From an uncultured Actinomycetes bacterium (GTDB lineage Bacteria > Actinomycetota > Thermoleophilia > RBG-16-64-13): DNA of 64,000 nucleotides. Numbering within the stretch: position 1 is the stretch's first letter; every line of letters begins with the position of its first letter. The notes beneath the pieces were generated by a model, which had not been told where the DNA came from, did not search any database, and saw nothing but the letters and a program-made list of their open reading frames with translations. Positions 3,938 to 47,766 of the stretch are shown here, piece by piece. The translations under genes were made by a program, and so were the position numbers. Where the stretch lies: assembly GCA_903873715.1 (NCBI GenBank), contig CAIQPS010000142.1:1693-65692 (forward strand), read 5' to 3'.

Positions 3938-5662
3938 TTACTCGGACGACGCGCCGTCCACCTGCTCGGTGCTGGTGGTCGTCTCACCAGGCGTCTGCTC
4001 GGTGCCCGAGGACGGCGGGATGCCCAGGCGTTTGACGGCGAAGTCGGCGATGCGGGCGAACACGGGGGCCGCCACTTTGGCGCCCAGGCGTTCCGTCTGG
4101 GGCTCGTCGATCATCACCAGGATGACCAGCCGGGGAGAGTCCGCAGGCACCATGCCGATGAACGAAGAGATCACTTCGTTGGAATATCCGGCCTTGTCCA
4201 CGTTGGGTTTCTGAGCCGTGCCCGTCTTGCCGGCCACGGTGTAGCCATCCAGCTGGGCTTTCTTGCCGGTGCCCGTCTCGACGGTCACCTGGAGCATCGC
4301 CCTGAGTTGCGCCGCGACTTCCGCGCTGACCACCCGGCGGTTCCACGGCTGCATCGCGTCCTTGACCAGATGGGGCTGCAACAACACACCGTCGTTGGCG
4401 ATGGCCGAGTACGCGCAGGCAAGCTGCAGCGGGGACACGGCCACGCCCTGGCCCATGGGGACCTGATAGATGGTCACGCCGTTCCACTTCTCAGGAAGCT
4501 GCCCCGCGGTCTCCCCAGGGAAGTCGATGCCCAGCTTCTTGGTGAAACCGAACCGCTTGATCATGTCCACCAGCCGGTCCTTGCCCACCTCCCGGCCGAT
4601 CGTGACCGCCCCGATGTTGGACGACTGCGCCAGTATCTGGGTGACGGTCATGGTGCGCCACGGAGGCACTTCCTGATCGGCCTCGTGGATGACCTTGTTG
4701 TAGGCGGTGAGGACGTCCGGCAGCGTGAACTCGGTGTCCGGGTCCACCACCCCGTTCTCCAGTGCGGCGGCGACCGTCACCATCTTGAAGGTGGAGCCCG
4801 GCTCGCACATGTCGGTGACGAGCCAGTTGTGGGTGCCTCCGGTCTTCGGGTCCTGGTCGCCGTAGTCTTCCGGGCTGAAGAGCGGGGTCGAGGCCATGGC
4901 GAGGATCTCACCGGTTCGCGGGTCCATGACCAGCGCACATCCGCGCTTTGCCTCGAACCGGCTCACGGCGTCGGCGACGGCCATCTCGGCCTCGTACTGG
5001 ATCTGGGAGTCGATGGTCAATGTTATCGACTTGCCGGCCACGGCCGGGGTCGCGGACATCGTGTAAAGCCGATCGCCCTTGCGGTCTCTCACCACCTGCA
5101 GGGTGCCGGGATCGCCCGAAAGCACGCTGTTGTAGCCGTATTCGATGCCCTCCATGCCCTTGTAGTCGGTCCCGCCGACGAACCCGAGCAGTTGGGGGGC
5201 CAGCGCCCCTTTCGGATAGACCCGCGTGGCCTCCGACATCACACCGATCCCGTCCAGGCCCAGGGCCTTGACCTGAGCTCCTATCGCCGGGTCCACCCTG
5301 CGGGCAAGGTACTTGAAGTTGGTCTTCGTGTCGGTGAGCTTCTTGTAGAGGTCGGCCTGCGAGACCTTCAGGACGGGGGCCAGCTTTATGGCCGTCTGGG
5401 TCGCGTTCTTGACGTTGGGCAGGTCCGCGTAGATGGTCGACATCTGCCGGGAGATGGCAAGCGTCTCGCCGTTCCGGTCGTAGATGTTCCCTCGCGCCGG
5501 CTCGAGCGTGATGGTGCGGACGTGCTGACTGTCCCCCTGCTCCTGGAGACTGGGGGCCGCGATCACCTGTACATAGAAGGTCCGCCCGAACAGGGCGATC
5601 AGGAACACTACGGCAAGCCCCATGAACAAGGCCAGACGCCTATGGGTCCGGCTGCTGCTCAT
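3938..5662 (-). CDS. ftsI: Penicillin-binding protein / peptidoglycan D,D-transpeptidase FtsI (class B PBP)
   Basis: 574 aa with an N-terminal TM helix, PBP dimerisation domain, and transpeptidase motifs (STFK, SSN, KTGT). Its start overlaps the ftsL stop by ATGA. Confidence 0.85.
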   Translation of the reverse strand: MSSSRTHRRLALFMGLAVVFLIALFGRTFYVQVIAAPSLQEQGDSQHVRTITLEPARGNIYDRNGETLAISRQMSTIYADLPNVKNATQTAIKLAPVLKVSQADLYKKLTDTKTNFKYLARRVDPAIGAQVKALGLDGIGVMSEATRVYPKGALAPQLLGFVGGTDYKGMEGIEYGYNSVLSGDPGTLQVVRDRKGDRLYTMSATPAVAGKSITLTIDSQIQYEAEMAVADAVSRFEAKRGCALVMDPRTGEILAMASTPLFSPEDYGDQDPKTGGTHNWLVTDMCEPGSTFKMVTVAAALENGVVDPDTEFTLPDVLTAYNKVIHEADQEVPPWRTMTVTQILAQSSNIGAVTIGREVGKDRLVDMIKRFGFTKKLGIDFPGETAGQLPEKWNGVTIYQVPMGQGVAVSPLQLACAYSAIANDGVLLQPHLVKDAMQPWNRRVVSAEVAAQLRAMLQVTVETGTGKKAQLDGYTVAGKTGTAQKPNVDKAGYSNEVISSFIGMVPADSPRLVILVMIDEPQTERLGAKVAAPVFARIADFAVKRLGIPPSSGTEQTPGETTTSTEQVDGASSE

Positions 5663-18628: not shown

Positions 18629-21292
18629 TCACTCCCGGTCCAGAAGGATGCCCGTGCGGAACGTCTCCACCGACACGAGCGGCAGACCGGAGGCCTGCGC
18701 CAACGCTTTCAGCACGTTCTCTGGCCGCGCGGTGCCCACCGGAGTGACCGCCGCGGTGAACTCGGCGCACCAGGCGCCGACCGCGCTACCGTCCGGCTCG
18801 GCGGACTCCGCACCCGAGCCACATGCCTTGGCCGGGCCGAGTTCGATATGTCTCACGTATTTGCGCACGTCGACGGCCCGCACCTTGTCCTCGCGGGTCT
18901 CCTCGATCATCCATTCCCCGGACGCGTCGAAACGCTGCACGCCGGCCGCCAGTGCCTCCGTGACCGAGGTCTGCCGCTCTGCGGGCTTACCGGCCGTCTC
19001 CGCGCCCTCTCCTCCGCCGGCCACAGTGAACACCAACCGATACGACGCAGCTGTGACCCGGGCGGCCAGGTGCCGCCTGCCCGTGTAGCGTTCTACGCCG
19101 AGCAACTCCATATGCCCGGGCAGATGAGCGGCCAACCGCTCGGCGAAGTCATCCGGTGGCGGCTCGGCGAGATCGAACTCCGCCATCTCTTCGAGACCTT
19201 GGACCCCGACCCCCAAGGGCATCACGAGGGTGCAGAGCGGCTTGGGCCTCATCCCTTCGGATAGGGCGAGATGGCCGCCGGCGCGGCGCACCGCGCGGCG
19301 GAAGGCCTCCATCCGGTCGAGATGGCCGAGGAACCGGCCCCGGCCGGTCACAGAGAAGCGGGCGACGAACCGGAGGGGCACTGGCGACACAGGCCGTCTC
19401 TCGCCGGCGACGCTCGGAGCCGCCACCGGCGCCGACGCGACCACTGCCGGCGCCGCGGCATCAGCTGGCGCCGCGGCATCCACTCCCGCAGCCACGGTGC
19501 AGCGCCGCGCGGCCAGGTCGTTCCCGGGCGGTTCGTCGCAGGCCCCGCAATCGTCGCAGCCGTCCCACCGGCAATCACCGGTCAGTTCGGCGCGCGAGGC
19601 CCTCTCCCACTCGCCCCACAGGTACTCGTGGTCGGGGACGTTGTCCACCACATCCCAGGGCAGCGCCGCATCGCGGTCCAGGGCGGCCGTCGCGATCGCT
19701 TCGGTCGACGTCCCTTCGTCCGCGAAGGCCTGGGCCCAGGCGGCCGGTCTGAACTGCTCGGTCCAGGAGTCGAAGCGCGCACCGTTGCGCCAGGCCCTCT
19801 CGATGGTCTCCCCTATGGCGGGCCCGCCGCGGGCCAGCGTCGCTTCCAGATATCCCTTGTCCGGGTTGGGCATGGACAGCCGGATGCCCGGCTTGCGCAG
19901 CTTCGCCCGCAGCAGTTCCTGCCGGCGGCGGACCGTGTCCCGCGGAGCCATGGCCGCCCACTGGAAGGGGGTGAAGGGCTTGGGGATGAAGGTGTTGACG
20001 CTCACGTTGATCTGGAGCCGGCTCGCCCTGCCGCCCAGGACTCGCCGCCCGGTGTCCCGGATGCGAAGAACCAGGTCGCCGATGGCCTCCACGTCCTCGT
20101 CTGCCTCCCAGGGCAGGCCCAGCATGAAATAGAGCTTCAAAGTGCTTCTGCCGCCCAGGAAGGCCTCCTCGGCGGCCGAGAGGATGTCGTCCTCCGTGAC
20201 GTTCTTGTTGATGATGTCGCGCATGCGCTGGCTGCCCGCCTCCGGCGCCAGGGTCAGCGAGTTTCCGGTCGGCGAGGCCAGCCAGGCGAGCTTCACGGAA
20301 GCGCTGTCGACCCTGAGGGACGGCAGAGAGAGGTTCACCTCGGGATGGGCCTCCGCCACCCCGGTAAGCACCTCGGCCAGACACGAGTAGTCCGTGGTGG
20401 AAAGCGAGGCGAACGCCAGTTCCTGGTGCCCCGTGGCGGCGAGTTGCGCGCCCGCCATCTCGAGGACCTCGGCCCCCGGGCGCTCCCGGACCGGCCGGTA
20501 CCACATGCCCGCCTGGCAGAAGCGGCACCCGCGGGTGCAGCCACGCATGACTTCCACCCAGGCCCGGTCGTGCACGCCGGCCACGAGCGGCACCAGCCCC
20601 GAGGCCGGGTACGGCGCTCCCGAGAGACGGCCCAGGCTGCGCCGCTCCACCCGGCCGCTCACACCGGGGACGAAGACCCCGTCGACCTCGCTCAACCGGC
20701 GCTTGATCTGCGCCCTCGCCGCTCCCGCCGCTCGGGCGGCCGAGACGGCTCGGAGGATATCGGGGAACAGTTCCTCGCCGTCACCGACGGCCACCGCATC
20801 CACGAAGCGGCTCACCGGCGCGAAGTTCGCGCACGCCGGTCCTCCTACAAGCACCAGCGGGTCGCCCTCCCCGCGGTCCTCCGCGTGAAGCGGTATGCCG
20901 GCCAGGTCGAGCATCTCCAACAGGTTGGTGTAGTGGAACTCGTGCTGCAGCGTGACGCCCAGCAGATGGGCTTCGGCGACCGGCGTCCAACTCTCCAGGG
21001 TGAGGAGCGGCACGCCGGCGTCGCGCATCATCCCGATGGCGTCTACCCACGGCAGGTAGGCCCGCTCGACCCCGACCCCCTCCACACCACGGGCGACGTG
21101 ATAGAGGATCTGGATGGCCTGGTTGGAGATGGCTATCTCGTAGGTGTCGGGGAAGCCGAGGACCACCCGGAGCTCGGCGGGGTGTCCGCTGAACCCAGGC
21201 CCCGCCCCCGCCTCTTCGCCCGTCAGCCGGGCCGGCTGCCGGATCCCGGCGAGAACGGCCTCGAAGGCGCTGTCATACCGGGTGGCGCTCAA
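18629..21292 (-). CDS. Fused radical SAM protein of the TIGR03960 type (B12-binding-like N-domain plus radical SAM core) with C-terminal DUF2344/TIGR03936 domain. Function unknown
   Basis: CxxxCxxC radical-SAM motif (GCTRGCRFCQAG). The N-terminal domain (YEIAISNQAIQILYHV...LVLVGGPACANF) resembles the B12-binding-like module of TIGR03960 proteins. An Ala/Pro-rich linker follows. The C-terminal 230 aa (RFVARFSVTGRGRFLGHLDRMEAFRRA...) matches the DUF2344 partner domain. The track ORF (to 21733) was trimmed. The proposed TTG start at about 21292 overlaps the upstream gene's stop as TTGA, and the conserved N-terminus begins ATRYDSAFEAVLAGIRQPARLTG. Confidence 0.8.
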   Translation of the reverse strand: MSATRYDSAFEAVLAGIRQPARLTGEEAGAGPGFSGHPAELRVVLGFPDTYEIAISNQAIQILYHVARGVEGVGVERAYLPWVDAIGMMRDAGVPLLTLESWTPVAEAHLLGVTLQHEFHYTNLLEMLDLAGIPLHAEDRGEGDPLVLVGGPACANFAPVSRFVDAVAVGDGEELFPDILRAVSAARAAGAARAQIKRRLSEVDGVFVPGVSGRVERRSLGRLSGAPYPASGLVPLVAGVHDRAWVEVMRGCTRGCRFCQAGMWYRPVRERPGAEVLEMAGAQLAATGHQELAFASLSTTDYSCLAEVLTGVAEAHPEVNLSLPSLRVDSASVKLAWLASPTGNSLTLAPEAGSQRMRDIINKNVTEDDILSAAEEAFLGGRSTLKLYFMLGLPWEADEDVEAIGDLVLRIRDTGRRVLGGRASRLQINVSVNTFIPKPFTPFQWAAMAPRDTVRRRQELLRAKLRKPGIRLSMPNPDKGYLEATLARGGPAIGETIERAWRNGARFDSWTEQFRPAAWAQAFADEGTSTEAIATAALDRDAALPWDVVDNVPDHEYLWGEWERASRAELTGDCRWDGCDDCGACDEPPGNDLAARRCTVAAGVDAAAPADAAAPAVVASAPVAAPSVAGERRPVSPVPLRFVARFSVTGRGRFLGHLDRMEAFRRAVRRAGGHLALSEGMRPKPLCTLVMPLGVGVQGLEEMAEFDLAEPPPDDFAERLAAHLPGHMELLGVERYTGRRHLAARVTAASYRLVFTVAGGGEGAETAGKPAERQTSVTEALAAGVQRFDASGEWMIEETREDKVRAVDVRKYVRHIELGPAKACGSGAESAEPDGSAVGAWCAEFTAAVTPVGTARPENVLKALAQASGLPLVSVETFRTGILLDRE

Positions 21293-22143
21293 TTCCTCAT
21301 CGAGCCCGCCAGCGCGATCACCTTGCTGGTCGAGGCCGGAGCCCCTTTCTCGAAATAGGCGACGGCACCCAGACCGACCGCGATGGTGCCCGTATACGCG
21401 GTGACCATCCTCATCACGACGGCCAGGCCGGGGATTGACCGGACCAAGAGCCTGCCGATGCCGCGCAGCCCGAAGCCCAGGCCGACCATGGCCGCGAGTT
21501 CGACGGCCCGCTCCTTGTCGACGGGTTGGCCGTACATGGCGGCGATCCGGAGGACCATCTTCGCTTGGTTGAGGGTCATGGCCGGCATGTCGGACCCCGG
21601 CATGAAGAACACCAGGGCTATGAAGACGTTCTGCATGGCGGTCTTGCTGATGAGCCTGCGCGCAGCTGCGCGGCGCACCACCTGATACCGCCGCCCCAGC
21701 GCGGTCCCCCGGTCCCCGGCGATCTCCGCGCACAGTGCGAACAGCCGGTCCCAGCCGGCCTCGCTGTCAGAGAAGGCCAGGCGGGTGATGCCGCTGGAGG
21801 TGAGACTCGCTTTGGGCCGGGTCCCCGGACCCTCGTCGACGGCGATGATCACCGACTTGCGGGATACGGTGCGCCCCAGGAAGGTCTCGACCTCTTCCTC
21901 CTGCTCGGGCGTGGTGAAGACCACCAGCAGCTCACCGGTCCCGGCCGCGAACGGCGCTGGCCCCCCGAACGCCTCCCGGGTGGCGACACCCGGGATGGTC
22001 CCGCCGGCGGCGAACTGCTCGCGCGCACGCTCGACGAGCGCCTGGTCGCCGGCCAGGGTCAGCGAGGCCGTCTCGTCAGAGGACGCGGCCGCCTCCCTGA
22101 GGGCGCCGAGGGTCTTGGTGAGGTTCAAAGGCAGCTTGGCCAC
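21289..22143 (-). CDS. Uncharacterised conserved protein (soluble N-terminal domain plus C-terminal amphipathic/membrane-associated domain)
   Basis: 284-aa ORF. It has a good fit to local codon usage. It fills the gap between rodA and the radical-SAM gene with coupled junctions. The C-terminal half has two hydrophobic segments (VFIALVFFMPG, IPGLAVVMRMVTAYTGTIAVGLGAVAYF). No family was recognised with confidence. Confidence 0.5.
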   Translation of the reverse strand: MAKLPLNLTKTLGALREAAASSDETASLTLAGDQALVERAREQFAAGGTIPGVATREAFGGPAPFAAGTGELLVVFTTPEQEEEVETFLGRTVSRKSVIIAVDEGPGTRPKASLTSSGITRLAFSDSEAGWDRLFALCAEIAGDRGTALGRRYQVVRRAAARRLISKTAMQNVFIALVFFMPGSDMPAMTLNQAKMVLRIAAMYGQPVDKERAVELAAMVGLGFGLRGIGRLLVRSIPGLAVVMRMVTAYTGTIAVGLGAVAYFEKGAPASTSKVIALAGSMRN

Positions 22144-22177
22144 TCCCGCCTCCCGAGATACAGGCGCCGGGAAGCCT

Positions 22178-23380
22178 CTAACGAGTCTGCCCGGCTACCG
22201 AATGAACGTGGATACTCTCCAGGATGCCGATCGCCATCAAGTTTACTACCAGCGAACTACTGCCGAAACTCATGAACGGCAGCGGGATACCGGTCACCGG
22301 CATGATGCCGATGGTCATCCCGATGTTCACGAACACCTCGAACACAAGCATCCCCGCGATACCGGTGGCTATCAGCCTGCCGTACATGTCGTCCGACAGG
22401 CGGGCTATGCGGAACGCGCGCCACACGACCACGGCGAACAAGCCTATCAACAGGATGCCGCCCATGAAGCCCAGCTCCTCGCCGACTACGGCGAAGATGA
22501 AGTCTGTGTGGTGTTCGGGCAGGAAGTTGAGGTGGGTCTGGGTGCCGTCCAGATACCCCTTGCCGGTGAACATGCCGCTGCCGATGGCGATCTTGCTCTG
22601 GGTCAACTGGTAGCCGGCGCCGGTGGGGTCTCGTTCCGGGTCCAGGAAGATGGTGAGACGTTGTAGCTGGTAGTCCTTGAGCACCTGTATGCCAAGGGCA
22701 GGCAGGATGCGCAATGCGAGCACGGCCGCGAACAAGCTGACCCCCGCCAGCGCTCCCAGATGCGGCAGACGGATCCCCCAGACCACCAGCATGCAGATGA
22801 GGATGGCACCGAACACCAGTGCGGTCCCCAGGTCCGGCTGCAGGAACACGAGCGCCGTCGGCACGAGCAGGTACACCACGCAGATGATCACGAACCGGAG
22901 CCGGTGCCGCAGCGCGGTCCCTTCGGCCAGCACCGCCGCCAACGAGATGATGAGCAGCAGTTTGGCCAACTCCGAGGTCTGCAGGCGGGTCACCCGGAGG
23001 TCGATCCACCGGTTGGCGCCCACCGTCGAGTTGCCCGCCCCGATGTGAGGTACCAGGGTCAGCACCAGGAGCAGGAGCGTGAACGCGTAGATGTAGGTGC
23101 GCCATCGCGAGACGCGCTTGTAGTTGATCACGCTGATCATCATGAGAAACGCGAAGCCGATCACCAGTCCGATGCCCTGGGAGCGCACGTAGAAGAACGG
23201 GGTGGAGATGTTGGTGTCTGCGTGGGTGGCCGAGTACAGCATCAGCAGCCCGTAGGTGACCAGGGAGAGGGTGGCGAGCAGCAGGATCCAGTCCATGCTG
23301 CGCAGGTAGGCGCCCAGCGAGAAGCCGAGCGGCTGTCGCCGTTCCCTGGCGTTCTGCAGCACTTTCACTGATGGGGCCAT
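22178..23380 (-). CDS. rodA: Peptidoglycan glycosyltransferase RodA (SEDS family: FtsW/RodA/SpoVE)
   Basis: 400 aa with about 10 TM helices and SEDS motifs. It lies immediately downstream of PBP2 in the mre cluster. Confidence 0.85.
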   Translation of the reverse strand: MAPSVKVLQNARERRQPLGFSLGAYLRSMDWILLLATLSLVTYGLLMLYSATHADTNISTPFFYVRSQGIGLVIGFAFLMMISVINYKRVSRWRTYIYAFTLLLLVLTLVPHIGAGNSTVGANRWIDLRVTRLQTSELAKLLLIISLAAVLAEGTALRHRLRFVIICVVYLLVPTALVFLQPDLGTALVFGAILICMLVVWGIRLPHLGALAGVSLFAAVLALRILPALGIQVLKDYQLQRLTIFLDPERDPTGAGYQLTQSKIAIGSGMFTGKGYLDGTQTHLNFLPEHHTDFIFAVVGEELGFMGGILLIGLFAVVVWRAFRIARLSDDMYGRLIATGIAGMLVFEVFVNIGMTIGIMPVTGIPLPFMSFGSSSLVVNLMAIGILESIHVHSVAGQTR

Positions 23381-23390
23381 GTGCGTTCCG

Positions 23391-25289
23391 CTACTCGGTG
23401 GTGGGGATTATGATGCTGCTGCTGCCGGTATGGAAGTATGCCTCCAGGACCCGCCTCACGACCGGTGCGGCCACCGAACTACCGTGGCCGCCCTGCTCGA
23501 TGATGGCCACCACGGCGATCTCGGGTTTGTCGGCCGGCGCGTAGCCCATGAACAGGGCGTAGTCCTTCTCCGGGAGCTTCTGGGCGGTACCGGTCTTGCC
23601 CGCCACGGCGATGGGGAAGTTCTTGAACGCCCCGTAGGCGGTGCCACCCTCGGACGTCACGCCCAGCATGCCCTGGCGGACGATGTCGAGGATGTCCAGG
23701 CTGATGCCCAGTTCTCCCCGCTTCTCGCTCTCGAACTGGTGGATGCGGTTTCCCGAAGCGTCGGTGATGAGCCAGCCCAGATGAGGCACCCACAGAGTCC
23801 CGCCGTTCGCGATGGCCGACAGCGCGACCACCATCTGCATGGGCGTCACCAGGAGGTCGCCCTGCCCGATGGCCAGGTTGATCTCGTCCCCCGGTTTCCA
23901 TTTCTTGTCCTCGGCTGTCTTGCCGACCTCGAGTTTCCAGTACTTGTCGGGCACCCGGGAGCCGGTGGTCTCGCCCGGCAGGTCGATGCCCGTGGTCTGC
24001 CCGAAGCCGAACTTCCGCACCCCGTCCTGGAGCACCGGGCCGGACTGGGAATACAGCAGGTTGCCCACGTTGTAGAAGTACACGTCGCACGACTCGGCGA
24101 TGGCCTGGAGCAGGTTGACCGTGCCGTGGCCCTTCGCCTCCCAGTCCTTCCAGGTCTGGAAGTAGGCCTTGTAGGAGCCCTTGCAGTCGAAGGTGGTCTC
24201 CGGGGTGATGACGCCCGCGGCCAACGCGGCCGTGGCCACGAAAGGCTTGAACGTGGACCCCGCCGGATAGAGGCCGTCGATGACCCTGTCGTAGAGCGGG
24301 AAGTGGGCCTGCGGGGCCGTCAACTCCTTGTACTTGACCGACGCCATCCCGCCCACCCAGAGCGACGGGTCGTAGTCGGGGAACGAGGCCATAGCGAGGA
24401 TCTCCCCGTTGTTGGGGTCCATCGCCACGACGGCGCCGCCTGCGGCGCCGTTCGCCTGGGCCAACTGTATCCCCTCGACCAGGGCGTTCTCGGCGGCCTG
24501 CTGCAGGTCGCTGCTGATCGTCAGCCACAGGTTGCTCCCGGGCGTAGGGGCGAAGTCCTCGACCACCCGCTTGGGCCGGCCGGCGGCGTCCACTTCCACG
24601 GTCTTGTAGCCGTCGGTGCCGCGCAGGAAGCTGTCGTACTTGCGCTCGACGCCGTCCTTGCCGAGGGTGGCGCCTGGCGTCAGTGTGGAGAATTGCTCCT
24701 GGTCGAGATCGTTCTGGGAGGCCTCCCCCACGTAGCCGAGCAGATGGGTGGCGAAGGCGCCGAAAGGATACTGGCGTAGATAGGAGTTCTCCACCTGGAT
24801 CCCCTTGAACAACTCGCTGTGCTCCTTGATGTAGGCCACAGTCGGGTTCTCGGCCACGTCCTCCTTGACGACGTAGGTGACGTACGGGTCCTTCTTGGCC
24901 TTGGTATACGCGGCCATGAGCTCGGATGAGTCGAGGTTGAGCACCTTCGCCAGACCGTCGATCTCGGCAGTGAACTGCTCGGGTGCCTTCTTGGGGTCGT
25001 ACATGTCCATGGGCAGCAGACCGACGTCCAGACCGGCCCGGTTCTCCACGAGGATCTTGCCGTTCCGGTCGTAGATGACGCCTCGGGGGGCCTCCACCTT
25101 GACTTCGCGGATACGGTTGTCCTTGGCCACCTTCACGTAGGTGTCGCCCGACAGGACCTGCATGTACCACAGGCGGAACGCGATGACGCCGAACAGGACG
25201 AACGTCACGATGAGGAGCACGCCGATCCGCATGCCGATGAACGAGTCGTCCTCGGTGGAGCGCTTCTTCCTGATGGGTTCGAGGATCAT
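23391..25289 (-). CDS. mrdA: Penicillin-binding protein 2 (elongasome class B PBP, MrdA)
   Basis: 632 aa with an N-terminal TM helix, PBP dimer domain, and transpeptidase SXXK (STFK), SXN and KTGT motifs. It sits between mreD and rodA. Confidence 0.9.
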   Translation of the reverse strand: MILEPIRKKRSTEDDSFIGMRIGVLLIVTFVLFGVIAFRLWYMQVLSGDTYVKVAKDNRIREVKVEAPRGVIYDRNGKILVENRAGLDVGLLPMDMYDPKKAPEQFTAEIDGLAKVLNLDSSELMAAYTKAKKDPYVTYVVKEDVAENPTVAYIKEHSELFKGIQVENSYLRQYPFGAFATHLLGYVGEASQNDLDQEQFSTLTPGATLGKDGVERKYDSFLRGTDGYKTVEVDAAGRPKRVVEDFAPTPGSNLWLTISSDLQQAAENALVEGIQLAQANGAAGGAVVAMDPNNGEILAMASFPDYDPSLWVGGMASVKYKELTAPQAHFPLYDRVIDGLYPAGSTFKPFVATAALAAGVITPETTFDCKGSYKAYFQTWKDWEAKGHGTVNLLQAIAESCDVYFYNVGNLLYSQSGPVLQDGVRKFGFGQTTGIDLPGETTGSRVPDKYWKLEVGKTAEDKKWKPGDEINLAIGQGDLLVTPMQMVVALSAIANGGTLWVPHLGWLITDASGNRIHQFESEKRGELGISLDILDIVRQGMLGVTSEGGTAYGAFKNFPIAVAGKTGTAQKLPEKDYALFMGYAPADKPEIAVVAIIEQGGHGSSVAAPVVRRVLEAYFHTGSSSIIIPTTE

Positions 25290-25825
25290 TCCTCGGCCCC
25301 GCCGAACTGAGCGGCCTCGACATGCCGCACGGGCAGCAGCCCGGTGCGGACGAACAACACGTAGAGCGGCGCCGTGATCAGGGCATCAAGGACCATCTCG
25401 GGGAGCATCTGGGTGCCGATCATGGTCAGGAAGCCCCCGCGCGGCCCCATGACGTACTGGAACAGACCGTACATGAACTGGGCCAGGAACGATGTGACCC
25501 CGGACAGCAACACCACGCTCCACGGCTTGGAGATGGCGAAGCGGGCCACGAAGACGCCCACGAGATAGCCCGCCAGGACGTATACCAGCGACCGCACGCC
25601 GAGGGGCGAGAAATAGGCGATGTCCGCGATGAGCCCGGCGAAGAAGCCGAACACCGCCGCCTCCAGCGACCCCCGGGAGACGGCGACGATCACCGTGAGG
25701 ATCAGGAACAGGTCGCCGGTGACCCCCAGGATGCTCACGTGCGAGACGACGATCACCTGCAGCAGCACCGCCACTACCAGCAGTGCCACCACCTTGGCCG
25801 CCATGATCAACTGGCTCCGGCCCAT
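25286..25825 (-). CDS. mreD: Rod shape-determining protein MreD
   Basis: Small polytopic membrane protein downstream of mreC. The track ORF (to 25975) has a Pro/Arg-rich non-conserved N-terminus. The likely start is MGRSQLIMAAKVV... at about 25825 (or M at about 25804). Confidence 0.7.
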   Translation of the reverse strand: MGRSQLIMAAKVVALLVVAVLLQVIVVSHVSILGVTGDLFLILTVIVAVSRGSLEAAVFGFFAGLIADIAYFSPLGVRSLVYVLAGYLVGVFVARFAISKPWSVVLLSGVTSFLAQFMYGLFQYVMGPRGGFLTMIGTQMLPEMVLDALITAPLYVLFVRTGLLPVRHVEAAQFGGAEE

Positions 25826-25832
25826 CAGCTCT

Positions 25833-26858
25833 CTACCCCTCGGTGGTGGTCGTGGTGCTCGAGGCCGGAGTGGTCGTGGTGGTCGTGCCGGATGCCGGGA
25901 CGGTCGTGGTGGTGGTGAGGCCGGCCGGCCACGTGGTGGTGGTGCTCCCGCCCGGCACGGTGGTCGTCGTGACACCGCCCAGGGTGTCGTCGGAGCCGGG
26001 CACTATCAGCACCATGACCTCCTCCAGGACGCGGAAGTCCAGGAAGGGCTGCACCTCGATGGCCTTGTAGCTGTTGACGTCCTCCTCGCCCACGTTCACG
26101 ACGATCCCGATGGGGATGTCGGGCGGGTAGATGCCGCCGCCGTAGCCGGATGTGACCACCACCAGCTTCGGGTCGACGCTGATGTCGCGGTCCACGTAGT
26201 CCATGATCACCCGGCCGGACACCGAGCCTTCCACGATGCCCTCCGCGCGCGACCCCTGGATCTTGGCGTACACGCTCGACTCGGAGTCGGTGATGAGTTG
26301 CACCTGGGCGGAATGGGCTGTCACCGACACGATCTTGCCCACCAGGCCTTTGCCGGCCAGCGCCTCACCCGCAACAGGCGTCGAACCGACCACCGCCATG
26401 TCGACGGCGAGGCCGTCGGCCGAGCCCTTGTCGATCTCCACCCAGGCCTGCCACTTGTTCGGAGACTTCGCTATCACCCTTGCGGCCACGAAGCCGGTCC
26501 CGTTGGGGAACGTCCCTTTGTCTTTGAGGTCGAGCAGGCTCTTGAGGCGTTCGTTCTCCTCGCTCTGCTCCTGGAGTTCGATGACCTTGCCCTGCAGCAC
26601 CTGCACCTCGCCGGCCAGACGCTCGGCGTCCTTGTGTGCGGCCCACAACGTGGTCAGCCAGTGATATCCGTCCTGGAACGGCTGGGCTATACGGTCACCC
26701 CAGGTCTGCATCGGGGCGAGCAGGCTCGCCGTGCCCCTCTGGATGGCATGGACCGGACCGGACTGGGTCTGCCGGAACGAGACTGTGAGTACCGCGAGCG
26801 ACGCGATGATCAAGACGACGAAAACGACTCGCCGCCAAGCCACCTTGTTGCGTGGCAT
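25833..26858 (-). CDS. mreC: Rod shape-determining protein MreC (with a Thr-rich C-terminal tail)
   Basis: N-terminal TM helix, coiled coil, and MreC beta-barrel domains (VVTSGYGGGIYPPDIPIGIV). The C-terminus is TTTTVPGGSTTTTWPAGLTTTTTVPASGTTTTTTPASSTTTTT. Confidence 0.85.
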   Translation of the reverse strand: MPRNKVAWRRVVFVVLIIASLAVLTVSFRQTQSGPVHAIQRGTASLLAPMQTWGDRIAQPFQDGYHWLTTLWAAHKDAERLAGEVQVLQGKVIELQEQSEENERLKSLLDLKDKGTFPNGTGFVAARVIAKSPNKWQAWVEIDKGSADGLAVDMAVVGSTPVAGEALAGKGLVGKIVSVTAHSAQVQLITDSESSVYAKIQGSRAEGIVEGSVSGRVIMDYVDRDISVDPKLVVVTSGYGGGIYPPDIPIGIVVNVGEEDVNSYKAIEVQPFLDFRVLEEVMVLIVPGSDDTLGGVTTTTVPGGSTTTTWPAGLTTTTTVPASGTTTTTTPASSTTTTTEG

Positions 26859-26891
26859 GAACTACCTCGCTAACTCAGGGCCGATGGGCCT

Positions 26892-27893
26892 TTAGTAGCG
26901 GCGCTTCTTGACCCTCTGTGAACCCCGGTACAGAGTGTCGAACTCTTCCAATGACCGCCCGGATCCGACGGCCACGCACGTGAGCGGCGATTCAGCCAGG
27001 TTCACCGGCATCTGCGTCTCCTCACGCACCCGTTCGCACATCCCGCGCAGGAGGGAGCCTCCGCCCGCCATCATGATCCCGCGGTCCATGATGTCGGACG
27101 CCAGTTCCGGCGGGGTCTTGTCGAGGGTGGACTTGATGGCGTCGACGATGGCCGCCACCGGTTCGGCGATGGCCTCCCGGATCTCCTCGGAGGAGACCAC
27201 CAGGGTCTTCGGCAGGCCGGTGACCAGGTCGCGCCCGCGGATCTCGGCCTGCTCTTCGTGTTCGAGCGGGAAGGCCGAGCCGATCTCGAGCTTGAGTTCC
27301 TCAGCAGTCTGGCTGCCGATCATGAGCTTATATTCCTTCTTGATGTAGGCGATGATCGCCTCGTCCAACTCGTCCCCGCCGATCCTCACCGACTGGGCCA
27401 CGACGATGCCGGCCAACGAGATCACGGCCACCTCGCTCGTACCGCCACCGATATCCACGATCATGGAGCCGGTGGGCTCTCCGACCGGCAGACCGGCGCC
27501 GATGGCTGCCGCCATAGGCTCCTCGATGAGGTACGCCGCACGGGCGCCCGCACTGATGGTGGCCTCCTCCACGGCGCGTCGTTCCACGCCGGTGACCCCC
27601 GAGGGAACGCACACGACCACCCGCGGATGTGCCCAGCGGTTCTGGTGCACGCGCTGGATGAAGTGCCGCAGCATCTGCTCCGTCACGTCGAAGTCGGCGA
27701 TGACGCCGTCCTTGAGCGGGCGGATGGCGGAGATGGTGCCGGGTGTACGGCCCAGCATGCGTTTCGCGTCGGCTCCGACGGCGAGGACCTCGCCCGAGCG
27801 GCTGTCTATGGCTACCACGGACGGTTCGGAGAGGACGATGCCTCTCCCCCGTACATACACGAGAGTGGTGGCGGTGCCCAGGTCCACGGCCAT
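26892..27893 (-). CDS. mreB: Rod shape-determining actin homologue MreB
   Basis: 333 aa with actin-fold phosphate-1/-2 motifs ([22 protein letters not shown]). Confidence 0.9.
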
Positions 27894-28019
27894 GTCCCGA
27901 CCGGCGAACCCGGTGATGAACTCGGTGAAAGCTATGGCCCTACCTCCCTGACGCTATCGGGCCCCTGGAGCGTTGGCAGACCGCCGGACCACCGGCTGGC
28001 CACTCGGGGCGTCCGCGTA

Positions 28020-28721
28020 TTATATCCACTGCCGCCGCATAAGGTCGAACCCGGCCTCCCGGAACAAGCGGGCAAGCAGGCACAGCGGCAGGCCCACCAC
28101 GTTGCTGTACTCTCCGCGCACCTCGGTGGCGAACATCCCCGCCAACCCCTGGATGCCGTAGGCGCCGGCCTTGTCCGTCCACTCACCGGAAGCCAGATAG
28201 GCCTCCACCTGAGCCGCGGACAACTCCCCGAAGGTCACGTCGGTCACCGCCGTGGCCACGATAAGACCGGTGGCGGCACCACCCATCTGCCCGGCACCGC
28301 CCGACGGCACGGTGGCGCCCGGCGCGCCCTCGGGCGCCCCGGGACTCCCCAGCCGCATCAACGCGACCCCGGAGACCACCTGGTGGGTCCTGCCCGACAG
28401 GGCCGTGATCATGTCCCGGGCGTCGTCCCGTGAGCCGGGCTTGCCCATCACCCGGTCGCCCAGGGTGACCAACGTGTCGGTCCCGAGGACGAAGGCGCCG
28501 AGCGGCACGCCGGCCGGCAGCGCCGCACCCCGCACCTTGGCGACCGCGTTCGTTGCGGCCAGCGTCACCGCCGTATCTCCGCTCATGACCTCGTCGGCCA
28601 CGGACCGCACGACCTCGTACGGCACCCCCATGTCGCGCAGCAGCGAATGCCGGCGCGGCGATTGCGACGCCAGGAAGAGCCTGAAATCAGGCGGGAACGG
28701 AGGCCGAAGGTCCACCGGCAT
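28020..28721 (-). CDS. maf: Maf-like nucleoside triphosphate pyrophosphatase (septum formation protein Maf)
   Basis: LASQSPRR...GTDT signature of Maf/Ham1 family. It lies upstream of mreB as in Bacillus-type maf-mreBCD clusters. Confidence 0.8.
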   Translation of the reverse strand: MPVDLRPPFPPDFRLFLASQSPRRHSLLRDMGVPYEVVRSVADEVMSGDTAVTLAATNAVAKVRGAALPAGVPLGAFVLGTDTLVTLGDRVMGKPGSRDDARDMITALSGRTHQVVSGVALMRLGSPGAPEGAPGATVPSGGAGQMGGAATGLIVATAVTDVTFGELSAAQVEAYLASGEWTDKAGAYGIQGLAGMFATEVRGEYSNVVGLPLCLLARLFREAGFDLMRRQWI

Positions 28722-29242: not shown

Positions 29243-29776
29243 CTACTGCTGCTGCGGCACCTGCTGCAGCTGCTGTGCCTCGGCGAGCCCGGGAGGGCTC
29301 TCGACCGGCGGTGCCACCCGCCGGGCCTTCAGGTCATGAGCGCAATACGGGCAGAGTTTCCAGCCCGGTTCCAAGACCCGGTCGCACGAAGGACAGGCGG
29401 TGCGCAGCGGCCTGCGGCAGCTGGGGCAGGCCAGGAAGTCCGGCCTGATGATCTCCCCGCAGGACGGGCACGCCCGCAACGTGTGCAACTCCTGCTCCAT
29501 GGCCCGCATCTCCAGTTCGCGCTCGCGCGCGTCGGCGAGATACTCCGCGGGGCGCAGGATGGCGTAGATGAGAGTGCCGATATACGGCAGGAGCAGCGAA
29601 CAGAGAACGGCCACTCCGACGATCACGGGATCGTCGACACGCTTGCGCGCATCCTTGAGAGTCCAGAAGACGAGCACCAACCACAGGACGACAGCGCAGA
29701 ACAGAAGTACGTAGACCGAGAGCATCCAGTACGGGGAACTGATGATCCTGTTGATGGTCTGGAAGAGGTTGTCCAC
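29243..29776 (-). CDS. Membrane protein with two N-terminal TM helices and a C-terminal double zinc-ribbon domain
   Basis: GTG start. TM segments WMLSVYVLLFCAVVLWLVLVFW and VIVGVAVLCSLLLPYIGTLIYAIL, then CPSCG...CPSC...CPSC...CPYC (four CxxC pairs). Confidence 0.5.
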   Translation of the reverse strand: MDNLFQTINRIISSPYWMLSVYVLLFCAVVLWLVLVFWTLKDARKRVDDPVIVGVAVLCSLLLPYIGTLIYAILRPAEYLADARERELEMRAMEQELHTLRACPSCGEIIRPDFLACPSCRRPLRTACPSCDRVLEPGWKLCPYCAHDLKARRVAPPVESPPGLAEAQQLQQVPQQQ

Positions 29777-39969: not shown

Positions 39970-40049
39970 TGCGGGTGAGAGGACTCGAACCTCCACGTCA
40001 AAGACACATGCTCCTAAGGCATGCGCGTCTGCCATTCCGCCACACCCGC
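39970..40049 (-). tRNA. tRNA-Leu (anticodon TAG), class II with long variable arm
   Basis: I folded by hand the reverse complement GCGGGTGTGGCGGAATGGCAGACGCGCATGCCTTAGGAGCATGTGTCTTTGACGTGGAGGTTCGAGTCCTCTCACCCGCA. The anticodon loop is CTTAGGA, the T-loop is GTTCGAGTC, and the variable arm is 13 nt. Coordinates +/-2. Confidence 0.75.
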
Positions 40050-40108
40050 CTGACGCTTCACAGCTCGAACCAACCCCGCGGGGACCGGCAGCTTACCGGT
40101 TCCTGAGG

Positions 40109-40183
40109 GGTGAACGATGGGACTTGAACCCACGACCGCTGGGGCCACAACCCAGTGCTCTGCCAACTGAGCTACGTTCACCA
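40109..40183 (-). tRNA. tRNA-His (anticodon GTG) with encoded G-1
   Basis: The reverse complement GGTGAACGTAGCTCAGTTGGCAGAGCACTGGGTTGTGGCCCCAGCGGTCGTGGGTTCAAGTCCCATCGTTCACC forms a cloverleaf. The anticodon loop is TTGTGGC. An extra 5' G pairs with C73. Coordinates +/-2. Confidence 0.75.
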
Positions 40184-40393
40184 CGACTGTCCGCCGCGCG
40201 CCCGAGTGGGCTTGCCGCAGACCGTCTCGTAAGCCCAAGTGCGTGCCGAACCCGACCCCTGTCTCACGAGCGCAGGACAGTATAGCGGATTGGGCTGGGG
40301 TGCAAAGGAAAAGGCCCGCCCGATCGACCCGGGTGGGAGCTGTGTCCACGAGACCGGGCGCGGACTCAGGGGGCTACGGGATACTTCGTGATG

Positions 40394-40888
40394 CTATTCG
40401 CGCAAGCGTTTGAGGTCGTGGCCCACACCGGGGCCTCGAGGCCACGGCCTCCAGGACAGAGCGGCGAGCACGGGCCCGAGGTGCTGAGGATCCCGCACCA
40501 GTTCGCGCCCTTGTGGCCAGTGACCGCTTTCCCAGAGAGCCCATCTCCCATCCTCCAGAAGCAGGATGTCGATGGAGTGGCTGAAGTCACGCCGCCCAGT
40601 CAGAGAGAACGAGAACCGGAAAACGCGGACACGCCTGTCTCTCGGCACCGGATACCAGTCACCGACGAGTCGCTCCACTCCGTCAGGCCCGATGCCGGTA
40701 CCGGCCGGTTCCCAGAACTTTCGCGGCACCGACTTCGCTAGATCCTCGAGCATGGCCGCGACGCTTTCGGGCGGATGCTCTATCGGCAGATCATCCGGAC
40801 TGACGCCGGACCGCTTCCAGGCAGCATTGATCCTTTTGTCCCTTGTCCGCGACAAGCACTGGCCAGCCGGCCCTCCACGCCCGCTCAC
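40394..40888 (-). CDS. Hypothetical Trp/Arg-rich protein (164 aa) in the inter-tRNA segment
   Basis: GTG start preceded by a clear GGAGG Shine-Dalgarno 5 nt upstream. An 11-bp palindrome GGTAAcTTACC lies between a putative promoter and the RBS. Local GC is noticeably lower than the window average. No recognisable domain. Confidence 0.45.
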   Translation of the reverse strand: MSGRGGPAGQCLSRTRDKRINAAWKRSGVSPDDLPIEHPPESVAAMLEDLAKSVPRKFWEPAGTGIGPDGVERLVGDWYPVPRDRRVRVFRFSFSLTGRRDFSHSIDILLLEDGRWALWESGHWPQGRELVRDPQHLGPVLAALSWRPWPRGPGVGHDLKRLRE

Positions 40889-41047
40889 CGAGGCCTCCTG
40901 TGTAGCTTGACCTTACGGTAACTTACCTTCCGGTCACATTAACAACACAGATGCGTCCAGCGCAAGTCCAGAGAGTGGTATTTGTCGATCGTGAGAAATC
41001 GAAGATAGTGCCGAACCCGGAAAGTGACGTGGGCCCCGAGCCCGCTA

Positions 41048-41121
<74 letters not shown>

Positions 41122-41159
41122 TCGGCCCACGATGCCGTGGAGGAATGCTCACCGAAAGG

Positions 41160-41232
41160 AGCGGGCGACGGGGTTCGAACCCGCGACATTCAGCTTGGAA
41201 GGCTGACGCTCTACCAACTGAGCTACACCCGC
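41160..41232 (-). tRNA. tRNA-Gly (anticodon TCC)
   Basis: The reverse complement GCGGGTGTAGCTCAGTTGGTAGAGCGTCAGCCTTCCAAGCTGAATGTCGCGGGTTCGAACCCCGTCGCCCGCT forms a cloverleaf. The anticodon loop is CTTCCAA. The discriminator is U, as in bacterial tRNA-Gly. Coordinates +/-2. Confidence 0.75.
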
Positions 41233-41260
41233 CCGGCGATGAGCCTTGCCGAGACGATAG

Positions 41261-41334
41261 TCGGGACGGGCGGATTCGAACCGCCGGCCCCCTGCTCCCA
41301 AAGCAGGTGCGCTACCAGGCTGCGCCACGTCCCG
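41261..41334 (-). tRNA. tRNA-Pro (anticodon TGG)
   Basis: The reverse complement CGGGACGTGGCGCAGCCTGGTAGCGCACCTGCTTTGGGAGCAGGGGGCCGGCGGTTCGAATCCGCCCGTCCCGA forms a cloverleaf. The anticodon loop is TTTGGGA. Coordinates +/-2. Confidence 0.75.
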
Positions 41335-47689: not shown

Positions 47690-47766
47690 TGGTCGGGGTG
47701 CCGGGATTTGAACCCGGGACCTCATCGTCCCGAACGATGCGCGCTACCAGGCTGCGCTACACCCCG
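47690..47766 (-). tRNA. tRNA-Pro (anticodon CGG) with encoded 3' CCA
   Basis: The reverse complement CGGGGTGTAGCGCAGCCTGGTAGCGCGCATCGTTCGGGACGATGAGGTCCCGGGTTCAAATCCCGGCACCCCGACCA forms a cloverleaf. The anticodon loop is TTCGGGA. Coordinates +/-2. Confidence 0.75.

Follow-up and report, generated by a model that had tools for sequence, protein, structure and literature searches.

The DUF697 domain (PF05128) is widespread and has repeatedly been paired with GTPases, either fused to them or encoded adjacent to them. In Escherichia coli, the inner-membrane DUF697 protein YcjF (UPF0283) has no G-like domain of its own, and its NTPase partner YcjX (DUF463) is the product of a separate adjacent gene, in the order ycjX-ycjF. 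The ycjX-ycjF-tyrR unit is sigma-32 controlled and often lies beside psp genes (PMC3041696). In the GTPase-DUF697 fusions, exemplified by P0330 ("GTPase [Chloroflexia bacterium]"), a GTP-binding (G) domain of the MMR_HSR1 or GTP_EFTU type precedes DUF697 in a single polypeptide. The protein described here, which we call X, has the same domain order. It is encoded directly after rodA on the minus strand of a 64,000-nucleotide stretch (the window) of contig CAIQPS010000142.1, from an uncultured Actinomycetes bacterium. X and the P0330-type fusions can be aligned over their full length and have the core motif PGxDxPxxTxNQ in common. However, P0330 and P0331 carry the full set of G1 to G5 motifs (GPVNSGKST, PGTT, DTPG, NKID and SAK) and are found outside mre operons, whereas X has none of these motifs, has a G domain about 40 residues shorter, and is fixed after rodA. 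We conclude with high confidence that X belongs to the DUF697 family and carries a GTPase domain that has degenerated. Its features are given below in window coordinates, each with its evidence; alignment A1 comprises the window clade, A2 joins it with the motif-bearing relatives discussed below, A5 is the motif-bearing set, and AF2 denotes AlphaFold2.

21289..22143, minus strand: coding sequence of X, 284 residues, stop included, predicted degenerate GTPase plus DUF697 protein (open reading frame [ORF] list, composition, homologues)
22149..22154, minus strand: ribosome-binding site GGGAGG, 5 nt before the GTG of X (sequence)
22075..22143, minus strand: residues 1-23, N-terminal peptide MAKLPLNL, then a helix (alignments A1 and A2, AF2 helix 6-22)
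21763..22074, minus strand: residues 24-127, reduced alpha/beta domain, predicted degenerate G domain of the Era/EngB type (alignment, hhalign, profiles, AF2)
21334..21762, minus strand: residues 128-270, helical, basic, glycine-rich, amphipathic DUF697 region (Pfam, AF2, YcjF alignment)
21565..21600, minus strand: residues 182-193, PGSDMPAMTLNQ, the most conserved motif of the family (alignment A2)
21289..21292, minus strand: TTGA overlap between the TGA stop of X (21291..21289) and the TTG start of the radical-SAM gene (21292..21290) (sequence)

The original prediction for this gene could assign no family. The match of residues 150-259 to Pfam DUF697 (profile positions 11-119 of 162) scores 38.4 bits, the cut-off being 27.7, and, together with public labels and the degenerate GTPase domain, supplies one. 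Some Coriobacteriia orthologues score under the cut-off, at 20-26 bits. Pfam gave no match in residues 1-149 for either X or the Coriobacteriia orthologues, and an NCBIfam search with X gave none at all. A large protein collection contained 157 full-length homologues, with identities down to 44%. Most are named "uncharacterized protein (DUF697 family)" by JGI, and some, from Thermoleophilia or Actinobacteria metagenome-assembled genomes (MAGs), are named "DUF697 domain-containing protein" by NCBI. For close homologues of X, the DUF697 label is thus already in public annotation; a function is not. When 1.84 billion cluster representatives were searched exhaustively with a profile, 2084 clusters scored E <= 0.001, 213 of them at E <= 1e-30.

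The AF2 model of X, built on a 32-sequence alignment, has a predicted local distance difference test score (pLDDT) of 78 and a predicted template modelling score (pTM) of 0.75. It consists of an N-terminal helix of low to moderate pLDDT (6-22), a small alpha/beta domain with strands at 27-32, 71-77, 98-103, 111-114 and 120-124, and five long helices (128-152, 154-178, 186-203, 210-236 and 238-265) that correspond to the DUF697 part. The core motif PG[AS]D[ML]Px[ML]TxNQxx[ML] is present between two helices as PGSDMPAMTLNQAKM (residues 182-196). P182, G183, D185 and N192 are invariant across A2, and the PGSDMPAMTLNQ motif forms the loop that follows the most hydrophobic stretch of the protein. 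At the other end of X, a short N-terminal peptide (M-x-K/x-L-P-L/V-x-L/I) is kept across the range from Gaiellales to Coriobacteriia, as well as in the motif-bearing relatives, with L4 and P5 nearly invariant. This conserved peptide may be the site at which a partner docks.

The N domain has lost the signatures of a GTPase. At the positions aligned in A2 with G1, G4 and G5, the window sequence reads LAGDQALVE, AVDEGPG and FSDSEAG (FSDSEAGW), respectively; the G4 remnant is D103 alone, under the Asp of NKxD, and the G5 remnant is S125 alone, under the Ser of SAx. The G3 motif DxxG is not present in X, and the P-loop (G1, GxxxxGK[ST]) is absent from every A1 sequence. In contrast, a set of relatives that occupy the same rodA/radical-SAM slot and have the same N-terminal LP peptide and DUF697 domain (P0198, P0269-P0272, P0141 and P0195) keep G1, G4 and G5, without G2 or G3. 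P0198 and P0269-P0272 carry GR(N/D)xVGKS, NK(I/V/T)D and SA(K/N/L); P0195 carries VTGEKESGKSALI, VLTKIDK and VSAKNNTG; and P0141 matches Pfam GTP_EFTU with 26.9 bits against a cut-off of 26.5. Since these mre-operon relatives retain G1, G4 and G5, they may still bind guanine nucleotide, which X should not.

Comparison of A1 with A5 by hhalign gave a probability of 100% and an E value of 9e-48; the 268 aligned columns begin at residue 1 (residues 1-270). Because most of this score stems from DUF697, the N domain was tested alone, using a profile of window-clade residues 1-148 against 367 N-terminal regions and 1101 shuffled decoys. The first pass reached P0141 at E 2.4e-4, which improved to 4.5e-11 on the second; in the third, P0195 reached 1e-8 and Coriobacteriia N domains reached 1e-10. 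None of the decoys scored at any stage of the iterated search. Judged by these profiles, the N domain of X is homologous to the bona fide G domains of the motif-bearing relatives. For one of the latter, P0198, the AF2 model (pLDDT 89, pTM 0.84) has EngB/YsxC as a match at E 1.4e-6, with Era, EngA and TrmE matching too; taken in full, the model bears a loose resemblance to IRG-type GTPases. EngB/YsxC, Era and EngA, of the TRAFAC class, are the best structural matches of the P0198 G domain (E 1e-6 to 1e-4). They are soluble, ribosome-binding and catalytically active proteins without DUF697, and the X model matches none of them significantly.

Among 133 complete rodA-linked ORFs from the loci retrieved, a strict Walker A is kept in only 4, of which 3 have NKxD too; it is found in 3 of 98 full-length cluster representatives. 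The sequences form a graded series, which runs from complete GTPase-DUF697 proteins outside mre operons, through proteins with G1, G4 and G5 inside mre operons, to proteins with no motifs, namely the window clade and the Coriobacteriia. X, with its P-loop, G2, G3, G4 and G5 motifs lost, is predicted to be a pseudo-GTPase that does not bind nucleotide, and its reading as an active GTPase was dropped for the same loss. The N domain nevertheless has invariant residues in A1 (L30, G32, E82, V102, G105, R121, F124 and W131), which suggests that it is selected for something other than nucleotide binding. Neither the degenerate GTPase domain nor the series of G-motif losses in one operon slot seems to have been described in the papers searched.

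The genes around X are arranged as follows, all on the minus strand:

18629..21292, minus strand: radical-SAM fusion (Radical_SAM_N2 + Radical_SAM + DUF2344), 887 residues, downstream of X (Pfam)
22178..23380, minus strand: rodA (FTSW_RODA_SPOVE), 400 residues, upstream of X (Pfam, 335 bits)
23391..27893, minus strand: rest of the Rod-system operon beyond rodA (Pfam), with the four genes below
23391..25289, minus strand: pbp2 (Pfam)
25286..25837, minus strand: mreD (Pfam)
25833..26858, minus strand: mreC (Pfam)
26892..27893, minus strand: mreB (Pfam)

The full order on this strand is lon, valS, folC, a zinc-ribbon protein gene, ndk, maf, mreB, mreC, mreD, pbp2, rodA, X, the radical-SAM fusion, rng, rplU, rpmA, obg and proB. 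Promoter-like sites are found 5' of mreB (28048..28019) and 5' of rplU, and no terminator-like site was found on the minus strand from mreB to rng. The rodA stop (22180..22178) is separated from X by 34 nt. By gene order, the lack of an internal terminator and this short gap, X belongs to the mreBCD-pbp2-rodA transcription unit, and this membership is kept across lineages.

We examined the best 80 loci from species-representative genomes and 80 loci from metagenome contigs. Counting Thermoleophilia, Coriobacteriia and unplaced lineages together, X directly follows mreBCD-pbp2-rodA in about 170 loci. The genome loci come from Gaiellales/Thermoleophilia and from Coriobacteriia, the latter including Eggerthella, Adlercreutzia, Gordonibacter, Slackia, Raoultibacter, Senegalimassilia, Ellagibacter, Paraeggerthella and Lancefieldella. 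All of those with enough flanking DNA read mreB-mreC-(mreD)-pbp2-rodA-X, followed by the radical-SAM gene in all but L054, where two ABC exporters come next; in a few of the 80, the upstream DNA is too short for the order to be read. The Coriobacteriia X ORF is longer (about 300-450 residues) and occupies the space from rodA to the radical-SAM gene. On metagenome contigs, rodA lies directly upstream in 69 of the 70 loci that could be judged. The sole locus without rodA, L124, encodes a paralogue that has just the DUF697 part in common with X and a different N terminus, so that rodA is directly upstream in every locus with readable upstream DNA that encodes a full-length X orthologue. The radical-SAM gene is downstream in 43 metagenome loci and absent despite room in 14. 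With L054, at least 15 loci have rodA-X without a downstream radical-SAM gene; one of them, L121, reads rodA-X-(67-aa ORF)-RNase E-rplU-rpmA-obg. The reverse arrangement, X beside the radical-SAM gene without rodA, was never seen among the loci examined. Because X stays with rodA when the radical-SAM gene is missing and the reverse is not seen, we take its linkage to be with the rodA module. The tight packing of the gene in a conserved operon and its invariant position, both claimed in the original prediction, are borne out by this synteny comparison.

The motif-bearing relatives are in the same arrangement. L081 (P0198) and L087/L088 (P0272) read valS-folC-ndk-mreBCD-pbp2-rodA-X, then the radical-SAM gene, DUF2344 and rng, and further on rplU-rpmA-obg-proB; the order in L084, L091 and L093 is as in L081/L087. 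L083 (P0141) reads pbp2-rodA-X, and L082 (P0195) reads X followed by the radical-SAM gene. The contigs range from 43% to 65% GC. In the papers searched we found no description of the strict X-rodA linkage over Thermoleophilia, Coriobacteriia and allied lineages, which seems to be new; looking for papers by gene order turned up just an irrelevant study of essential genes in C. difficile.

Gene order alone points, tentatively and at slightly less than an even chance, to X as a nucleotide-independent, membrane-proximal adaptor or regulator of RodA-PBP2/MreB. If this role and the family identity are judged as one blended claim, the whole is marginally favoured. X is the conserved final gene of the mreB-mreC-mreD-pbp2-rodA operon in Thermoleophilia, Coriobacteriia and their relatives, and encodes a two-domain cytoplasmic protein, which would be held at the inner face of the membrane through the DUF697 domain. 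Without nucleotide, this protein would regulate the RodA-PBP2/MreB complex of wall elongation or serve it as an adaptor, a GTP switch that was tethered to the membrane in an ancestor having been turned into a fixed scaffold. An elongasome or radical-SAM role had been suggested earlier; the gene-order link favours the former, by way of the rodA module, and not the latter, the role itself being a matter of inference.

RodZ is a cytoplasmic/membrane adaptor of MreB and RodA-PBP2. The likeness of X to it is one of proposed role, that of a membrane-proximal Rod accessory, and would be a functional analogy. Unlike RodZ, X has no helix-turn-helix, no clear transmembrane helix and no periplasmic domain, and a Pfam search gave no sequence relation; with no common domain, the reading of X as a RodZ homologue was dropped. 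A bolder proposal, which we consider rather unlikely, is that the X subfamily constitutes an unrecognised sixth Rod component, a membrane-tethered GTP switch on RodA-PBP2/MreB that was frozen into a nucleotide-free, RodZ-like pseudo-GTPase scaffold, with coupling of wall elongation to the radical-SAM/RNase G/Obg module. It would cover Thermoleophilia, Coriobacteriia (human-gut Eggerthellaceae included) and allied lineages, with freezing of the motifs in most of them.

Several observations weigh against the adaptor reading or one of its parts. First, a shared operon is no proof of shared function: this super-operon holds ribosomal and proline-synthesis genes too. Moreover, the sample of loci is biased to relatives of the query, and the searchable literature on DUF697 (including UPF0283 and PF05128) gave no functional account. 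With regard to the G domain, hhalign of the N domains alone aligned just the first 36 columns (E 3e-5), which is why iterated profiles with decoys were used. The structure prediction and Foldseek search proposed as a check in the original prediction gave an AF2 model but no significant match of it in the PDB, the best being SIS/flavodoxin-like at E 0.015; the GTPase origin of the N domain accordingly rests on the sequence profiles and the relatives. A PDB sequence-profile search with X found just de novo designed alpha/beta proteins, at E >= 0.09. A sugar-binding reading was set aside, as the SIS/phosphosugar-isomerase and ribosomal S2 matches are weak (E 0.015-0.5) and reflect a generic flavodoxin-like sandwich.

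With regard to the membrane, no 19-residue segment of X reaches a mean Kyte-Doolittle hydropathy of 1.6 (maximum, 1.56), and the helices of the DUF697 part bear the invariant charged residues R212, E215, R227 and R231. In E. coli YcjF, it is residues 171-293 with which the A1 profile aligns, and the most hydrophobic stretch of X (NVFIALVFFMPGSDMPAMTL) falls on the YcjF hydrophobic segment 214-234. However, the strongly hydrophobic YcjF segment 99-121, which precedes the DUF697 core, has no counterpart in X; both YcjF segments exceed 1.6. The two transmembrane helices at the N terminus of YcjF are missing from X. An integral multi-pass membrane protein was dropped as a reading, its hydropathy being too low and invariant charges lying within its helices. 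For the same two reasons we favour an amphipathic basic bundle, and we infer that the DUF697 part of X may lie against the membrane or partly enter it. Acidic and basic residues number 20 and 14 in residues 1-150, against 5 and 18 in residues 151-284, and a basic residue is conserved at position 245; the hydrophobic maxima sit in the C-terminal part. The acidic N half and the hydrophobic or amphipathic C-terminal part of the original prediction thus stand as to composition, whereas the hydrophobic maximum remains below the transmembrane threshold.

Two other roles compete with that of a Rod-complex adaptor. One, which we hold to be improbable, is that X serves the downstream module of radical-SAM/DUF2344, RNase G, L21, L27 and Obg. 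On this reading X would be what remains of a GTPase for ribosome or RNA maturation, and its task would be to recruit or regulate the radical-SAM enzyme, possibly at the membrane. The junction with the radical-SAM gene speaks for it. In 20 Thermoleophilia-like loci (window 21289-21292, L004-L007 and L096-L119), the X/radical-SAM junction is TTGA in 17 and GTGA or ATGA in 3. The 17 have the form NNT-TGA, and their last X codon varies (CGT, CAT or AAT) but ends in T, so that the TTG start of the radical-SAM gene is preserved, an indication of selection on the T that forms the start codon. We read the overlap, from the sequence, as translational coupling of the two genes. Moreover, the ancestral G domain is structurally closest to GTPases of ribosome assembly (EngB/YsxC, Era and EngA), and Eggerthellaceae keep the radical-SAM gene with rodA-X though rng, rplU and rpmA are elsewhere. 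However, the 14 metagenome loci and L054 retain rodA-X without a following radical-SAM gene, no locus has the opposite, and in Coriobacteriia X lies near or overlaps the rodA stop but is tens to hundreds of bases from the radical-SAM gene. Clostridia-type operons with the same radical-SAM gene are not known to require an X-like gene, which also counts against a role in the downstream module.

The other competing role, to which we likewise give little weight, is that of a general membrane-stress or housekeeping DUF697 protein like YcjF, which became fixed at the operon junction without a specific tie to any neighbour. X is indeed homologous to the DUF697 core of YcjF, whose genes have the sigma-32 and psp associations given above, and the distant GTPase-DUF697 proteins P0330, P0337 and P0340 sit in unrelated contexts. 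Yet the YcjF context is one of heat shock and psp, not cell-wall genes, whereas X has rodA and the radical-SAM gene as neighbours. No YcjX-type partner gene is present here. The position after rodA persists at about 25-35% identity of X and at 43-74% GC, which would be unusual for a neutral hitch-hiker, and the strong conservation of the N domain despite motif loss argues for a specific binding partner.

Finally, 69% GC makes long spurious ORFs common, several of which overlap the X region, but a chance open frame has a practically negligible probability here and was dropped, given a third-position GC content (GC3) of 0.90 in X against just 0.64-0.70 in overlapping frames, substitutions mainly at third positions, the 157 full-length homologues and 2084 library clusters, the Pfam match over cut-off, and a kept ribosome-binding site and syntenic position. 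In the ORF listing, the X frame starts with GTG at 22143 and is open for 284 codons; its GC content at codon positions 1/2/3 is 0.66/0.52/0.90, and neighbouring genes are alike. Between X and its L002 orthologue there are 60/24/128 differences at these positions. The GC3 value and the third-position bias mark X as a real coding frame rather than a by-product of high GC, and on this sequence evidence it is a genuine, conserved and expressed-looking gene. The consistent codon usage described in the original prediction agrees with these values, its TTGA/short-gap coupling can be read directly in the sequence (an NTGA junction is kept in 20/20 loci), and the GC-driven open frame that it had named as the refuting case is ruled out, syntenic homologues being present. 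Its statement that X has no long overlapping partner, however, does not hold: plus-strand ORFs of 249 and 293 aa overlap X, and the radical-SAM frame remains open as far as 21733, within X, all of them with non-coding composition. In three long-read MAG assemblies (L001, L003 and L008), X and some of its neighbours are split into shorter frames; these breaks are probably assembly insertion/deletion errors and not pseudogenes.

Some further observations concern the neighbours of X. The radical-SAM and DUF2344 parts are fused in the window through an Ala/Pro-rich linker, and several relatives (L081, L087, L091 and L093) have a separate DUF2344 gene of 99-254 aa; the literature searched for DUF2344/TIGR03960 gave nothing relevant, and we found no described function for the radical-SAM/DUF2344 pair. 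In a clade of 67-71% GC (L121, L128, L129, L132, L134-L136, L139, L142, L144 and L155), rodA-X is followed by a conserved-looking 67-aa ORF (L121 6867-7070) and a long RNase E with Arg-rich tails, with no radical-SAM gene between. A response-regulator/HD-domain gene (HD-GYP-like) lies between rng and rplU in L081 (12369-13394) and L087 (12408-13409); this insertion is found in lineages whose X retains GTPase motifs. The L124 paralogue (4155-5234) has a weakly sigma-70 region-2-like N terminus, adjoins a rhodanese/beta-lactamase-fold gene and is outside mre operons. In the window itself, maf lies immediately 5' of mreB (28020-28721, minus strand), and a 177-aa double zinc-ribbon protein is encoded between folC and ndk (29243-29776, minus strand). 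Six tRNA genes, five of them clustered (39970-41334 and 47693-47766, minus strand), are the sole Rfam matches in the window at gathering thresholds.

Through the X subfamily, DUF697 can be placed in a defined cellular setting that is open to testing, the end of the Rod-system operon, and a single genomic slot offers a natural gradation of G domains, from motif-bearing to fully degenerate. Should the Rod link be false, X is an ordinary conserved hypothetical gene, already labelled DUF697 in public databases. If it is true, culturable gut bacteria, Eggerthella, Adlercreutzia, Gordonibacter and Slackia among them, would have in X a lineage-specific elongasome factor, and X would also be a bacterial example of a pseudo-GTPase. 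Researchers of cell shape could take X up as a candidate for tests in those gut Coriobacteriia that can be cultured.

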